A stretch of 64,000 nucleotides of DNA, from positions 75,392,001-75,456,000 of the forward strand of contig OX597818.1 of the NCBI GenBank assembly GCA_951406725.2. Reading direction: 5' to 3'. The stretch is from Octopus vulgaris. Taxonomy: Eukaryota. Both the position numbers and the translations under genes were made by a program. The notes below the pieces were generated by a model, which saw only the letters and a list, made by a program, of their open reading frames with translations, was not told the origin of the DNA and made no database searches. This document shows, piece after piece, positions 1 through 63,048 of this stretch (within the stretch, counting starts at the first letter, position 1; every line of letters begins with the position of its first letter).

Positions 1-2002
1 TCGCCAGCTTCCGCAGTAGCGGCTCGAGAGTCAATACATACAGAAGCGCCGACAGGGGACACCCCTGACGGACCGAACGCGTGATGTCAAACGGTTTCGA
101 CAGGTGGCCGTTCACCCGAATCACCGATCGGATGCCGCTATACAAGGCAGCGATCCAACCGTGGAAGACGGAACCGAAGCCAGCCGCCCTGAGGACGGCC
201 GCCAAGTACCGATGGTCGACCCTATCGAAGGCTTTAGACTGATCCAAATTGATCAGCGCCCCACCCATGCCAGGATCCTTAACTACCCTGTCCACAATGT
301 AGCGCATCAGATGGAGGTTGTCATGTATGGTTCTGCCCGGCACGGCGCATGTTTGCGCCCTGTCGACCAGTTTACCAATGACAAGCGCCAACCTCTCGGC
401 TATCACTTTGGCCAAAATTTTCAAATCTGCGTTAAGCAGAGTGATGGACCTGAAATTATCTATAAAATTCTCCTTGTTTGGGTCTTTCTTCAGCAACGTC
501 ACTGCACCTCGGCTCACGAAACCGGGAATTCTCCCGTTTTGTTGCCAGTTGCAGTAGACTGATGCCAAGAGGTCGCCAAACAAGTCTGGCATTTGACGAT
601 ACAGCTCGTAGGGTATACCATCCAATCCAGGCGACTTATCCCTCGCGCAGCCCGCCATCGCATCCCAGACGTCAGCGGCCGTGATGGGACTTTCACAACA
701 CGCCGCTTCTCTTGCCGAGAGCCGTGGTAGGTCGGTCAGGTAGACACTGAAATCCATCCCGCGTTCCGACCCACCACTCGCACCAAACAGTCGAGCAAAG
801 TGTAGTTAAAAGGCCTCACACATACTTTCGGGTTCGAGTAAACTGCATCCCTGTTAATCTATTAGAGACCGAATGGTGGCTCTGTTGCCACGCTGCGCCT
901 CCGCTACCCGGGCCTCTCGCGCAGCTTCAATCCCTTCGTTCCTTAAGGCACGCATTTTAGCTCTGACGACGCAACCCTCGTGCTTGGCGTTGAGGTGTTG
1001 GTCGAGGGCCATCCTCGCAGCCAGCACGCTGGTTGCGCAGCCAGTGGTAAGTACCTCTTCAAGTTTCTTAACCAGGTCTCCCTCTACTCTATTTCGATTT
1101 ATCGCTAATTCCTTGCTAAACCTAACTGATTCCGATTTTATTGCCATTTTCAGGGCGAACCACCAGCGGTTGTTAACGACGACAGCCGTCAGCGCCCTCT
1201 TAATTAACTCGCTAATCCGGTTCCTGTAAACCTGTCGCGCTAAGAGCGACGTGTTCAGTTTCCAGTAACGGAGACCCTGTCTATGTGTCTTATCTAAGTC
1301 GAGCGTACACGTAACAAATTTGTGATCTGTGTAGCTGACTATTTTAAATTGTGGACATCCTACACTATCCCTATCCGCTGTCCTGCATAGAATTCTCTCT
1401 AGATAAGATCTCGACGATCCGGCGCGGTTTGTCCAAGTCCACGTTGGCACGTTCGGATGGTCGAGTCGGAACCTGTCAGACAAATGGAAACGTCTGAGTA
1501 GGTCTTTGATGCACTTACACCCCCTTCTATTCCTATCCATTCCCACATAATCTAGATGCGTGTCCAAGGTAGCGTTCCAATCCCCTACTAGCAGTAAATG
1601 TCTAGACGTACCCAGAAAAAACTCTAGACGTCTGAAGAAATCCGCCCGACCCGTTAAATACGGTGCATAAACTGCCATCAGTCGGAATGCACACCCATTT
1701 CTGCCATCCACGTCCAAGACAACCAGCCTACCCTCCGGGTCTAGGAATATTGTTCTTACTTTTACATTTAGACTCTTTCGAAAAAGTACCGCGGTACCTC
1801 CACCACCCATGTTCGGCAGACAGGGAGAAAAATAAATGTCGAATTTATCGCCAAACATGGACGCGAGGGCCCGCGGCTTGCTGAGTCTGGTTTCACTGAT
1901 AGCTACTATATCCACGTTCAGTGACTTGATGTCGTTTAGAAGGTAACCTTGTTTCCAAGCCGACGCCAAGCCACGCGCATTCACACAACCTAATTTAAGC
2001 AT
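1..2002 (-). pseudogene. LINE ORF2 (APE endonuclease + reverse transcriptase), two in-frame TAA stops
   Basis: APE motifs: MLKLGCVNARGL, DIVAISET, AVYAP, GDWNA, TDH. The frame continues past TAA at 854-856 and 806-808 into KSPGLDG, NFRSITLLNADLKILAK, LDQSKAFDRVDH and VRQGCPLS (about 51-73). Confidence 0.9.
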
Positions 2003-2068
2003 AATTGACGTTTAAGAAATTTGTGTTTCACACACTACATTGGAAGAGACAAGAGGCAAGAGGGAAGG

Positions 2069-3344
2069 TCACTTACCCATTTCGAAAGTTTCAGTTTTTT
2101 CTTCATCTTTTGTAGTGTCTTTGAGGAGGTGTTTGAATAGTTTTTTGGAGAGGTATTTTTGAAACACCCCTACCGCATTTGGAAATATGGTTTTCAGTGT
2201 ATGGTGTTGTGTTTGCGTTATGTGTACAATTCTTATGTGTTTTGGTGGAGTCGTGCGCGGATGATTATTTGTCTTAAAGTCATCTTCGCAGATGTTCGTG
2301 TTGGATGCAATGTAATCCATTAGTTTTTTATTGTCCGTGTCTATTGCTGTTAGTTGTGTGTGTGGTTTTGCGGGGTCATTGATTTTTTTATTGTCTAAGG
2401 GGATGCTGTCCGGAGTTAAATATCCCTCTGCTTTACTTACTTTTTTGGTGGGCTTTTTTTGTCTTTTCCTTTTACCCCCTGTGGCTATTTGCCATTCCGT
2501 CGAACTTTCGTCGTCCGACGAATCAGAAGGGGGTAAAGGCAAAGCATTTGCGTTAATATGTATGTTTGTAGAAATTGTTGATGTTTTGTGCGGTGTTTGT
2601 GTTGTTGGGGTGTTAGGGTTAGAATTTGTCTTCTCGTCACTACTTTCTTTTTTTTTTTTTTGTCGTCCTTGGTGCTGGTGTTGGTCTATATTTTGGTGTT
2701 GTTTCAGTATGTTGAATTGGTTGCGACGTCAACGGTGATTGTGTTGGTGCTGTTTCTTTTCTTGGTGATGTTGTTGGGGTTTGTTTGCTGGTTTGTTGTT
2801 TTTCTTGGCATTGTTCCATCATTGAGTGTGTTGGTGTTGGTGTTGGCAACAAAGGTTTTTTGTTTGTTTTCTGATTTGTTTTTTCTTGTTTTCTCTGTGC
2901 CAGAACGCACTTTGCAATTAAATGTTCTGGGCTGCCACAGTTGTAGCATCTTGGGTTTTTGCCTTCTGCTACAACATATAGGCCTTGCCCATTTTCTAAA
3001 TGGATCCTATCAGGAAGTTTCTCTATAGAGGACCCATCAATCTGGATGGTCACTTCTATTGATTTATCACCCCAATTGTCATTTTTGTACTGGACGATTT
3101 CTAATATGTTTATCGTTTTTAAATGATAACATATCGCCGATGTTATCCATTTGGGTGATATGTCTGTTGGGACATTTTTAATTGTAATTTTGCTCACTCT
3201 TTGGCCTTTGTAATATGGTATCATGATGATTTCATCATTTTGCAAAGGCTCCGTAGAGTGAGCTTTTGCCACTTCCTGGTTAGGGAAGCGGACCACCACT
3301 GTATTAAACTGGGGACCCCAGTTTATATATTCTTTTACTTTCAT
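2069..3344 (-). pseudogene. LINE ORF1 (gag-like, zinc knuckle), frameshifted in a homopolymer
   Basis: ORF 2640..3344 (CCHC knuckle) joins ORF 2069..2542 if one base is shifted in the A-run at about 2648-2661, giving ...KKESSDEKTNSNP...LPLPPSDSSDDE. Confidence 0.75.
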
Positions 3345-23521: not shown

Positions 23522-24018
23522 TTTCTCTTTTCTCTCGCTTATTATTTTGCCTCCTCTTTAGTCTGTTACTCTCTCTCCCTCACTCCTCCACCCTTGCTCA
23601 CGTGGCTCCCACGTGACTATCGGCCATCTTTCTTTCTCTCCGTTGTAGCTGGAACAAAGAAGACGTATTCTTGTCTGTCTCCTGTCCATGCTTGATTTAC
23701 GCGTTCGCTACCACAACCTCTTTTAGGCTTAACAGCCCTTCTGTTTGTATTACCAATTTTGATCCTCCGCAAAATCCCAAATTTTATTTAATATGCTTTG
23801 CGGGAGCAACTGTTTTATCGAAAACGTATATTGTTGTTAAATGCTCGAAATACGAGACTAGAAAAACAGCCAACAACTGATGAAGGGTCGTTATTTATGT
23901 TGTTTGTCTTGTTTTCCATTTGTGTCATTTGTTATTCGAAAAAACAGTTCATATTCCATGTACTCGTGCTTCGTATTTTTATGTTGTACACGTTTCATGA
24001 CGTCCTGTACCCACATAT

Positions 24019-30654: not shown

Positions 30655-31127
30655 CCACGTGACCGGTGTTCGACCAGGCCTGACCTTTCTTTCTTTGTTG
30701 GACTACTGTCCGTGCAACATCTATATTCTTTCCCGTGCTTGTCCCTGCCATAAGGCTTTAATTCCACACACGCCAGCTTAATTTAATTCGTCCTTAGTCG
30801 AAAGACACCTGTTGTTATGTCCTGTTATTTGTATTTGAGTAACATATCTGGGGTTTTTTCGTCCTTTTTTTTCGTATACATTCGCTGCTTTCTTCCAAGG
30901 AATGTAATGCTCTTAGCTTATTTTTCCTTGGGTCTGGCCAGATTGGAGCAATCTCGAGTATAACCAGCCGAAATTGTAAGGATAATCTCGAACTCGACTA
31001 AGGATAGAAAACTCCGAATGATCCGTCCTTGTTTTCCTTGTATCGTCTATCTGGATATTTTGTTTTCCCTGTTTTTGTTTCACCTAATTGCCTGGATGTT
31101 TTGCGTTCTTGTCCCATATTTGTGTTA
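30650..31127 (+). mobile_element. PLE-like terminal repeat, subfamily 2, ending in (TA)n
   Basis: Colinear with 37383-37745 (minus), from CGAAAGACACCT to GCGTTCTTGTCCCAT. Confidence 0.65.
30879..31020 (+). ncRNA. Non-circularly permuted hammerhead candidate, copy D (core G5A, AUC site)
   Basis: Hairpin CCAAGGAA/TTCCTTGG; IIa GTCTGG with IIb CCAGCC (1 mismatch); P0 AGATT/AATCT; III GCAAT/ATTGT; I TCGAGT/ACTCGA; core CTAAGGA; closing TTTCT/AGAAA and CATTCG/CGAATG. Confidence 0.6.
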
Positions 31128-35949: not shown

Positions 35950-36765
35950 AACTGGCTAGAGTTAGTCTGTAAGGTGTTGGATAAGCCTTATTGAACCTAA
36001 AATTTTAGGTTGCGAGATCGCCGACGAGGTGACTTCCCGAGGCCAGTTGAGTAGGAGGACACTGCAGCGAGCATACAAGCCGCAAGCAGGTAAAGTCGAC
36101 CGCGAGTGCAATAAACTTATACACAGGTATTTCTTACATTTTACATGGGCAATATATATATATATTAAGAACAATCTTACTTAGAAAAGGATGCGTCCGT
36201 TCCGTCATATAACAAATTAATAAATAAAACATATGCATATATACATGCATATATGGGTACAGGACACCAAAAAAACGTTGAACACAATGAGAAACGAAAA
36301 CATAAACACAAAAACAAGGAAATGGACATACATGACTTCAATAAAACTTTCTTTCCCGCGAAAATCAAATTAAATAAAATCTGTCGTTACTGTCCTGTTT
36401 TTGTTACCATTTTTACCCCTCCGCAAAAAAATCTCAAATTTTATTTAATTTGATTTTCGCGGGAAGGAAAGTTTTATTGAAATCATGTATCGCCTTGACC
36501 TTCGAAACGTGGAGTAGATGAAACTAAGGCGACTGAAGAAGGGGAATTTTCCTTGTTTTGTATGTCCTGTACTCCATTTTTTCGTTGTTTAAAAGAAATG
36601 TCCACTTCCTTGTTTTTGTGTTTATGTTTTCGTTTCTCATTGTGTTCGACGTTTTTTTGGTGTCCTGTACCCATATATGCATGTATATATATACATGTAG
36701 AGGTAGGTACGTACATTTATGTATGTATATATGCATATGGTTTATTTAATAATCTATTATATATA
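35950..36765. mobile_element. PLE-like element, subfamily 1, with inverted partial duplications
   Basis: 36215-36330 is inverted at 36595-36750, and 36331-36380 is inverted at 36438-36488. Ends at (TA)n. Confidence 0.7.
36416..36544 (+). ncRNA. Non-circularly permuted hammerhead candidate, copy B (intact core, GUA site)
   Basis: CCCCT | hairpin CCGC..GCGG | IIa GAAGG | P0a GTTTTATT | IIIb TCATG-T-A^(36489) | Ib TCGCCTTG | IIb CCTTC-GAAA-IIIa CGTGG | P0b GATGAAAC | Ia TAAGGCGA-CTGAAGA | AGGGG. Confidence 0.8.
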
Positions 36766-37382: not shown

Positions 37383-37851
<469 letters not shown>

Positions 37852-38484: not shown

Positions 38485-39265
38485 CTTACTTGGAGAACAG
38501 AAAGGAAACGAAACGAAACAACGCGAGGGCGCTCAGTCATGCAAATATTTAATAAATAAAATATATGCATACATACATACATGTACGTACCTACATCTAC
38601 ATGTATATATACATGCATATATAAATATATATATATACGTGAGTACAGGACACCAGAAATAGACGTAGAACTCAACGAGAGACGAAAACGTAAAAACAAA
38701 CATGGAAACGGACCTTTTTAACAACGAAAAAAACAGAGTACGAGACAAACAACACAAGGAAAATTCCCCTTTATCAGCTATCCCTAGTTCGACTCCATGC
38801 GTGTTTCGAAGGTAAAGACAGAACACGACTCCTCGAACTAATCCTTCCTGCGAAAGAATTAAATAAAATTCCTTTGCAGAGGGGTAAAAACAAGGAAAGA
38901 AAAAAATGTCACAAAAACAGGACGTAAAAGTAATACAAATAAAAATGCGAATAAAAAAATAAATACAAAATAAAAATACAAATACAAAAAATACAGTACA
39001 AGAAATCAAAACAAACAGGAAAACAAACAATGAGGGCCTTTTTTTAGCATAGACGAGGAAAAATTTAAGAGCGCAGGAAAATAGCGTGTTCACTTGTAGG
39101 AGGTTGCCAGCGGTTTTTACGTTTTCGTCTCTCGTTGAGTTCTACGTCTATTTGTGGCGTCCTGTACTCACGTATATATATATTTATATATGCATGTATA
39201 TATACATGTAGATGTAGGTACGTACATATATGTATGTATGTATGCATATATTTTATTTATAATAT
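38481..39265 (-). mobile_element. PLE-like element, subfamily 1, with inverted terminal duplication
   Basis: 38550-38697 is inverted at 39113-39262. Flanked by (TA)n on both sides. Confidence 0.7.
38766..38884 (-). ncRNA. Non-circularly permuted hammerhead candidate, copy C (core G8A, GUU site)
   Basis: CCCCT | hairpin CTGC..GCAG | IIa GAAGG | P0a TAGTTCGA | IIIb CGTG-T-T^ | Ib CTGTCTTTA | IIb CCTTC-GAAA-CACG | P0b TCGAAC(TA) | Ia TAGGGATAG-CTGATAA | AGGGG. Confidence 0.7.
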
Positions 39266-47178: not shown

Positions 47179-48715
47179 CAGTAGTTTTATTTTTATTTTT
47201 ATAGCGTGCTTTCACTTCACTACCGAGCGCAGCTCTGTGTGCCTTGGGTATGTGCTGTGATTTGTTGTGATGCTCTGATGGTTATTGTATGGAAAGTGTT
47301 CTGCGTAGGATGTGTGCAGTGCCTAGTAGTGCAATTTTCTGTATGTTATATGTGTTTGTAAGTCCTGGTGTTTTTGTTATGTATTTGTCTGAATATTTTT
47401 TTATCATGCCTAATGCACCTACTATGATAGGAATTGTTTCTGTTTTCAGATTCCACATTCTAGTTACCTCTATTTCCAGGTCTTTGTATTTTGAGAGTTT
47501 CTCCATTTCTTTTAGAGACACGTTGTCATCTGCCGGTACTGATACATCAATTAGAAAGCATTTTTTTCTTCATGGTCTCTGACAACTATATCTGGTCTGT
47601 TGGCCTTAATTTCTCTATCTGTGTGTATCGGCATATCCCAGAGTATGGTTGCTTTCTCGTTTTCTGTGACCTTTTCTGGTGTGTGCCTATACCATATTTT
47701 TTCTGTTGTTATTCCATAATGTTGGCATAGCTTCCAATATGTAAGTTCCAACTCTGTCGTGTCTGTGAATATATTCCTTCTTAGCCAGGACTGGGCAGCT
47801 AGAGATAATATGATTTATTGTTTCTTGTCCATCTCCACATATTCTGCAGTTACTTGTAATATTTCTTTTCATTACATGTTTTTGGTAATTTCTGGTGGGG
47901 AGGCTTTGGTCTTGTGCTGCAATTAAAAATCCCTCTGCCTCTGCTTTGAGTCCTGAGCTTCTCAACCATTGCTGGGATTTTTCTTTGTCTATTTCTTTTG
48001 CGTTTAGTTTAGTCCAGTATTTACCATGAAGGGGCTTTTCTTGCCATCGTTTTATCATGGTTCGTTGCTGTTCTATTTTTAGTTTGGATTTCATTTTTTT
48101 TATAGCTTTTGTTGTTTCTTCATCTTCTTCTTCTTCTTCATGTTTATTAGGTGGTATGATTTCTTGTTTGTATTTGTCAGCTTCCTTAAATACTGAGAAC
48201 AGTTTTTTGTTTTGCTCGTGTTTTGCCGCTATCTGGATCAGTTTTCCTTCCTTCTGAAGTAGATATTTTTGCAGTCCTATGGTGGTTATTTTATAGTAGT
48301 TTTCCAGCTGTATAAGGCCTCTACCACCTTCTATACGTTGTATATATAGTCTTTCTATGTCAGATTTTGGGTGATGCATCCTAGATCCTGTCATTATTTT
48401 TCTTGTTTTCCTGTCTATTTTGGTCAGTTCATTTCGTGTCCAGTTAAGGATATTGTAGCTGTAACTTATAACTGGGACAGCTAAAGTGTTGATACCTATT
48501 ATCTTGTTTTTAATATTGAGTTCTGTGTTTAGTATTGATCTAACTCGTCTATAATATTCTTTTTTTATTTTCTCTTTCATTTGTGTGTTGTGTCTTATCT
48601 AGTTCATGGATTCCTAAGTATTTGCAAGTTTGGCTTTGGTCTAATTCTTTTATTTCATTTGCTTCATCCAGTGTGATGTTGTTACTCTTAACTAGTTTTC
48701 CTCTTTTCATGGTTA
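47179..48715 (-). mobile_element. R4/Dong-clade RLE LINE, 5'-truncated, in (TAA)n
   Basis: YLG, GGRGL, CRICGDGQETINHIISSC, RHD, RPDIVV...IDVSVP...EKLSKYKDL, QKIALLGTAHILRR. (TTA)n on both flanks; several frameshifts. Confidence 0.93.
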
Positions 48716-62859: not shown

Positions 62860-63048
62860 GTGACCCTGTGTGTACTGTTGGCGATTTTTTTCCTCCGTCT
62901 TCCCTTCTTTGGATCTTTCCTTTTCCTATGTTTCTGACGAAGAGCTCCGCTCGAAACGTTAAACTCTCCTTCTTTCCTTCTTTCCTAAGCATCCAATAAT
63001 ACTATACTTGTTCCACGTCCTCGCGTTGTTGTGTTTTCTTGTTTGGAT

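Follow-up and report, generated by a model that had tools for sequence, protein, structure and literature searches.

Can the conserved CUGANGA block of a hammerhead ribozyme be parted from the strand that forms its stem II? The question is raised by a short locus, copy B (36416-36544), in a 64,000-nt stretch of Octopus vulgaris DNA (positions 75392001-75456000 of contig OX597818.1; hereafter the window), which lies inside a 2.8-Gb microsatellite-rich genome. In copy B the hammerhead blocks stand in a non-circular order, S-G-C, and the CUGANGA block is split. Read 5' to 3', the strands are those of a closing helix, a hairpin, the 5' side of stem II, an interaction helix and stem III with GUA; these are followed by strands of stem I and the 3' side of stem II, by GAAA, by the remaining strands of stem III, the interaction helix and stem I, by CUGAAGA and, last, by the second strand of the closing helix.

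All elements of copy B are on the + strand. The 5' strand of closing helix IV (36416-36420) pairs with its 3' strand (36540-36544) at 5/5 Watson-Crick positions, and the helix is in the predicted fold if the RNA ends at 36544. The inserted hairpin V (36421-36462), which appears in the predicted folds and whose basal 4 bp are kept across families, runs straight into G10.1 (36463) of the stem II 5' strand (36463-36467), whose pairing with 36499-36503 is backed by covariation. Next come the 5' strand of the stem I-II interaction helix (36470-36477; partner 36518-36525) and block S (36484-36496), identified by its sequence, with a stem III strand, GUA (36487-36489) and a stem I strand (36490-36496). 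By analogy with other hammerheads, cleavage would fall between 36489 and 36490. Block G (36499-36512) holds the stem II 3' strand (36499-36503), GAAA (36504-36507) and a stem III strand, and the segment 36518-36539 holds the interaction 3' strand (36518-36525), a stem I strand (36526-36532) and the intact core CUGAAGA (36533-36539).

Four more copies lie in the window. Copy A (23761-23889, + strand) has the same layout and an intact core and belongs to a family with 2983 first-look candidates. On the - strand, copy C (38766-38884) has the same layout with one core change (G8) and relatives with an intact core, and copy E (37494-37636) also keeps the layout, the basal pair of its helix IV being U-U, and has one core change (U4); in the relatives of E shown (n=19), the core is intact or differs by one base. 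Copy D (30879-31020, + strand) is a decayed member of family E with changes in core and stem II. The five copies represent four different high-copy families. All five copies named in the original prediction are present, with every pairing that it listed in place. CUGANGA is intact in A and B only; each of C, D and E has a single core change that is absent from its closest relatives. The original prediction had described several minimal PLE-type hammerheads with an extra base in the window, of which an exact-core scan finds one (62934). This is a minimal type I hammerhead at 62930-62964 (+ strand) whose stem II has 4 bp and in which a single additional A separates A9 from G10.1.

A structure descriptor found five S-G-C cores in the window, four of them with the full split layout (D fails on its stem II mismatch), and one in a separate 400 kb random genomic sample; three dinucleotide shuffles of that sample gave none. 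With a looser descriptor, 800 kb of genome gave five cores, four of them split, and five shuffles of the same 800 kb gave six cores in total with none split. CUGANGA alone occurs 27 times in the window against 22 expected, which is no enrichment, so the signal resides in the helices. Searching the window against 4227 Rfam families at the gathering score gave no match and hence no assignment to an Rfam hammerhead family, and the output of a repeat finder was dominated by microsatellites. CUGANGA, GAAA and the U-H site are intact in A, in B and in six family representatives, stems I, II and III covary and the G10.1-C11.1 pair is kept, features of sequence and helices that the motif shares with the hammerhead class.

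To compare the helices we took one natural copy from each of six families (A, B, C, E, F and N), anchored at the junction, and counted Watson-Crick pairs with strands from the same family and with strands swapped between families. Helix boundaries were optimised per family and the families are related, so that significance is overstated in these counts: 30/30 own-family against 68/150 swapped for the upstream stem II, 24/24 against 52/120 for the basal 4 bp of hairpin V, 30/30 against 50/150 for stem I, 22/24 against 36/120 for stem III, 25/30 against 42/150 for the interaction helix (4-10 bp in 6/6 families) and 25/30 against 79/150, a high background, for closing helix IV. While the helix letters turn over, CUGANGA, GAAA, the U-H site and G10.1-C11.1 are retained, the last invariant in 6/6 families. 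In a nine-row alignment, in which one misaligned row counts against it, the upstream stem II reaches 91% pairing, 4/5 of its pairs have changed in both strands, and 0/500 shuffles reach its covariation score. The MAFFT alignment places helices IV and V of different families out of register and sets family N off by one column, so we relied on it for stem II alone; IV and V were compared by junction-anchored counting. Among 70 distinct S-G-C cores in fetched loci, which were picked by similarity and are therefore not independent, 63 have an upstream stem II of at least 4 Watson-Crick pairs and 58 of the 70 have V and IV as well, while none has a downstream stem II of 4 Watson-Crick pairs. Covariation thus bears out the proposal that the stem II 5' strand lies upstream behind the hairpin and that the bases after A9 close a long-range helix, and the two helices proposed at 9/10.1, hairpin V and closing helix IV, are present in 6/6 families. 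In a further family related to A, seen at locus L146 (about 780-910, + strand), the copy has a stem II mismatch.

The host of copy B is a 5'-truncated non-coding repeat of family B (36381-36762, + strand; unit about 700 nt; 2953 first-look candidates genome-wide) that ends at (TA)n. Beside it, on the - strand, lies an inverted, 5'-truncated piece of the same element with a short tail (36166-36383), lacking about 36489-36597. The families of the window copies have about 1700-3000 first-look candidates each, and since 400 kb of random sequence held six homologous loci, one of them partial, a rough extrapolation gives some 40,000 copies genome-wide. Copies share a common 3' end at (TA)n, variable 5' truncation, often an inverted piece upstream, and a tail. 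Units in families B and F are about 660-710 nt, and periods of 664-706 nt were found in 5/7 loci probed; the longest copies are tandem with one hammerhead per unit, three F arrays reach a second ribozyme, and arrays are mostly shorter than one unit. No upstream frame with GIY-YIG and reverse transcriptase (RT) was seen on translating the eight longest A, B and E copies, and a search upstream of family F found no RT gene. Judged by sequence, these are Penelope-type repeats that are non-coding, sit at (TA)n and are truncated at the 5' end. Two loci (L065 and L067) share the entire 1.5 kb upstream flank, likely by segmental duplication, and the window also contains retroelement remnants with endonuclease/exonuclease/phosphatase and zf-RVT domains at 854-2011 and 47687-48598 (both - strand).

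A link to a coding element comes from family N. Of 30 loci in the genome that match a Naiad-type RT fragment, 11 are followed by the fold on the same strand at a distance of no more than 1.5 kb, always as family N; none of the 30 has family A, B, C, E or F downstream. The RT remnants before family N match RVT_1 at E 1e-5 to 1e-3, below the Pfam cut-off, and most Naiad-type RT matches in the genome have stops or short frames. The 3' motif of the octopus Naiad has 397 matches in the genome with the same layout, and a reversed control has none. For families A-F, the common fold and the insertion anatomy make mobilisation by a Naiad RT likely.

The layout also occurs in Naiads of other animals. 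By eye, we inspected the final 420-480 nt in 53 of the 54 Naiad consensus sequences of Craig et al. (PMC8557442 File S5). The full layout is present in 10/53 (Bfor, 3_Chem, Amil, Aacu, Anas, 2_Movir, Plae, EuTe, Obim and Ovul) and a decayed layout in one (Esco); together they represent eight distinct lineages in five phyla as labelled in PMC8557442. In the remaining 42, the part viewed contains different motifs or no motif. Coral, clam-shrimp and acanthocephalan Naiads keep, by eye, the same register with different letters. The sections of PMC8557442 on these elements describe Naiads as devoid of canonical hammerheads and point to cores and half cores ('HHR_core' and 'HHR_half_core') that are left unexplained; they also give the Penelope-like anatomy of (TA)n targets, partial tandems, inverted 5'-truncated pieces and a short tail. 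The octopus copies share all of these features as well as the 3' layout, and differ in that the window families are non-coding and share the fold without a detected RT gene.

Other Naiads fill this 3' slot differently. Another conserved, structured-looking motif occupies it in CGi, Sglo, Olur, Tgra, Pmar, 1_Chem, 2_Chem, Skow and Pfla, and this motif of bivalve, hydrozoan and hemichordate Naiads is a candidate ribozyme. In Naiad-1_Movir, 4_Chem, Mgal, Bpla, Mphi, Scon and Mmer the same slot holds signatures that we take to be twister-like, which suggests that Naiads swap ribozyme classes. In the nematode Naiads Nbra-1/2/3, Hcon and Hpol (PMC8557442 File S5), the hammerhead blocks run, by eye, in the order C-S-G, block C being uninterrupted; the article of Eckert et al. 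gives this permutation for only two metagenomic sequences (PMC10085705).

We judge it probable that these RNAs are self-cleaving and that they have an S-G-C hammerhead core with the stem II 5' strand upstream of the cut, opened at A9/G10.1 by a predicted four-way junction. The motif is real and conserved and, from its sequence together with the copy ends described below, probably active. An alternative that we consider unlikely accepts an active ribozyme with stem II upstream and makes helices IV and V peripheral, as a folding aid or a scaffold for the retroelement RNA, the backbone being simply open after A9. Helix IV is the least convincing element by sequence and may not be necessary: in family N, the one linked to Naiad, it has only 3 Watson-Crick pairs, and in E and F its base includes 1-2 positions that do not pair. 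Hairpin V varies in length from 24 to 42 nt, and stem II with the interaction helix could hold the core alone. A peripheral role sits poorly with the positions of the two helices, since V ends exactly at G10.1 in 6/6 families and IV begins 0-2 nt after A9, and with the register kept across the coral, clam-shrimp and acanthocephalan Naiads.

Evidence bearing on activity comes from the 5' ends of genomic copies. Family F is young, with 12 copies identical over 161 nt; five motifs were checked in its 52 full-length ribozymes, and in 35 of these every motif agrees with the reference. We located the 5' ends of family F copies with a 23-mer placed 87 nt beyond the predicted cut, taking each of its 95 exact matches and dropping nine anchors (seven downstream tandem units and two judged to be internal deletion junctions) to leave 86 independent ends. 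Of these ends, 21 fall at +2 to +18 from the cut, 12 at +21 to +86 and 53 upstream of it, so that 53/86 copies read through the cut site. Within -140 to +86, the 20 nt after the cut hold 21/45 ends against 24 in the other 207 positions (binomial P 3e-11), and 0/20000 scan simulations reach the observed peak. The peak divides into 13 ends situated after the cut but before stem II and eight at the stem II 3' strand or immediately 3' of it; family F shows no end peak at helix IV, stem I or hairpin V. Microhomology to (TA)n was rejected as the cause of the peak, rates being up about 8-9-fold at both A/T-start and other positions. The end distributions are non-uniform for other reasons too: a second cluster (16/86) lies at -174 to -210 from the cut and could mark a transcript start or another RNA end.

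The peak was not reproduced in family B, where 2/30 ends fall after the cut at +6 and +17, or in family N, where 2/52 fall at +6 and the anchor hides ends beyond +8. Four sequencing runs for the family F unit, contigs of presumed kind with none listed as RNA, showed neither joints nor end pile-ups and weigh neither for nor against cleavage or circular RNA. The family F pile-up is likely the footprint of cleavage in vivo, and would arise if RT ran off a cleaved 5' end, losing a few bases. In the inverted piece beside copy B, a single event, the left break of the deletion is at most 2 nt from the predicted cut, as a jump onto a cleaved 3' end might leave it.

The pile-up might also be explained by a real but non-catalytic structure, a protein-binding or template signal for the retroelement enzyme at which RT stalls. 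That most F copies read through the site, that families B and N have no end peak and that eight of the 21 peak ends sit at a possible pause site would all suit such a signal. It would leave unexplained, however, why CUGANGA, GAAA, the U-H site and G10.1-C11.1 are kept as the helices turn over, why 13/21 ends fall where nothing would stay paired and why helix IV, stem I and hairpin V produce no peak; other Naiads, moreover, hold other ribozyme-like motifs in the same slot (by eye). We regard this explanation as quite improbable.

The remaining choice concerns the strand that makes stem II. In copy B, 36540-36544 could serve in a weaker, 4-bp stem II instead of in helix IV. In A, B and C such a downstream stem II comprises only 2 G-C and 2 G-U pairs, at -4.1 to -5.6 kcal/mol against -8.7 to -9.5 for the upstream stem II (-4.1 against -8.7 in copy B); in the nine-row alignment it is 64% paired, and 451/500 shuffles reach its score. 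An ordinary type SGC hammerhead with an extra A after A9 and a downstream stem II, the upstream strand being a decoy or off-switch, is therefore very improbable: A, B and C can form that 4-bp stem starting with G-C, and both type SGC and the extra base are known, but only two of its pairs are Watson-Crick, its energies are weaker, it is impossible in E and F and it shows no covariation. Since family F cannot form the downstream stem II, its pile-up bears directly on the split layout.

These competing pairings affect the choice of a substrate. In copy B, the predicted fold has the stem II 5' strand tied up by the 3' flank (36545-36554), and the nested minimum-energy fold of copy B with its flank, from programs that cannot draw pseudoknots, lacks stem II and IV (z -1.26). 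Copy B had been put forward as the best test substrate for its intact core. The core is indeed intact, but the downstream stem II and the sequestering flank make copy B second-best; copies of family F or E would be better first substrates, because in B the flank and the downstream G-run offer competing folds. An equivalent of the flank is also present in family C, and may reflect chance or an off-switch acting after transcription.

In the split hammerhead that we favour, the strand leaving A9 would enter closing helix IV, the partner strand of IV would lead into hairpin V, and V would lead into G10.1 of stem II. The core stack, IV, V and stem II would thus meet in a four-way junction in which IV stacks on V and stem II on the core, the junction taking the place of a single phosphodiester bond or a single extra base. 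Such stacking of stem II, onto the core G-A pairs, is also seen in ordinary hammerheads. The active site would otherwise be that of a normal hammerhead, and an additional helix would link stems I and II, as it does in type SGC. Tandem transcripts would be cleaved into monomers. All bases of the catalytic core except the cleavage triplet would then sit on the 3' product, and the two products would be held by four helices (IV, II, the interaction helix and III; about 20 bp), favouring re-ligation into circles. Animal retrozyme monomers are described as being circularised mainly by RtcB in vitro. With reverse transcription primed at (TA)n, copies would stop at the cut on a linear template or run through it on a ligated or uncut one, and circular or uncut templates would account for copies longer than one unit that continue past the site.

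Type SGC (HRIMA-1 and variants; PMC10085705) is the closest known arrangement, sharing, as described in the article, the S-G-C order, a short linker between stems I and II, a I-II helix and all core bases. In the octopus motif, by contrast, the stem II strand sits 5' of block S, and the space it vacated is taken by two helices. The original prediction had connected the motif neither with type SGC nor with Naiad retroelements. The octopus motif would work like type SGC but is not a member of it, its block C being broken. For all six permutations, Eckert et al. take block C to be uninterruptible, and their main text reports no insertion of more than 1-2 nt beside CUGAnGA (PMC10085705). Natural hammerheads are described as tolerating one extra base at 9/10.1 (PMC4209133; PMC3705267). 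In the accounts given there, minimal PLE hammerheads and the CChMVd A10 hammerhead likewise carry an insertion between 9 and 10.1 and keep G10.1-C11.1; theirs is one unpaired base in circular order, whereas here there are two helices and a relocated strand. Animal non-LTR retrozymes (PMC7229834; 10.64898/2026.07.22.740005) are, in the text of these articles, also non-coding, tandem and PLE-related, with one hammerhead per unit and unit lengths whose range includes ours, but they carry type I hammerheads, unlike the S-G-C motif with split block C and arrays mostly shorter than one unit found here. The main text of Li et al. (10.64898/2026.07.22.740005) makes no mention of SGC, octopus or cephalopod. 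In the literature outside most subscription journals and the supplements of Eckert et al. and Li et al., we found no description of a split-core or four-way-junction hammerhead.

Taking these observations together, we lean, if only slightly, towards a broader interpretation in which the motif would be a seventh natural hammerhead wiring beyond the six permutations, active and multiply pseudoknotted, with an essential junction; it would be the missing Naiad ribozyme in at least five phyla, and its clamped products would drive circularisation of tens of thousands of retrozyme-like repeats. The split layout would break the stated rule that the CUGAnGA block is inseparable from its stem II strand, and hammerheads with a non-circular permutation, so far a matter of environmental sequence, would then also be present in animal genomes in very many copies. 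If the 9/10.1 step can open to take in whole helices, it would offer engineered ribozymes a new attachment point for aptamers. For Penelope-type elements, the pile-up of ends at the cut would provide a genomic read-out of ribozyme activity, and the puzzle of the Naiads, with no canonical hammerhead and unexplained half cores, would gain a testable structure.
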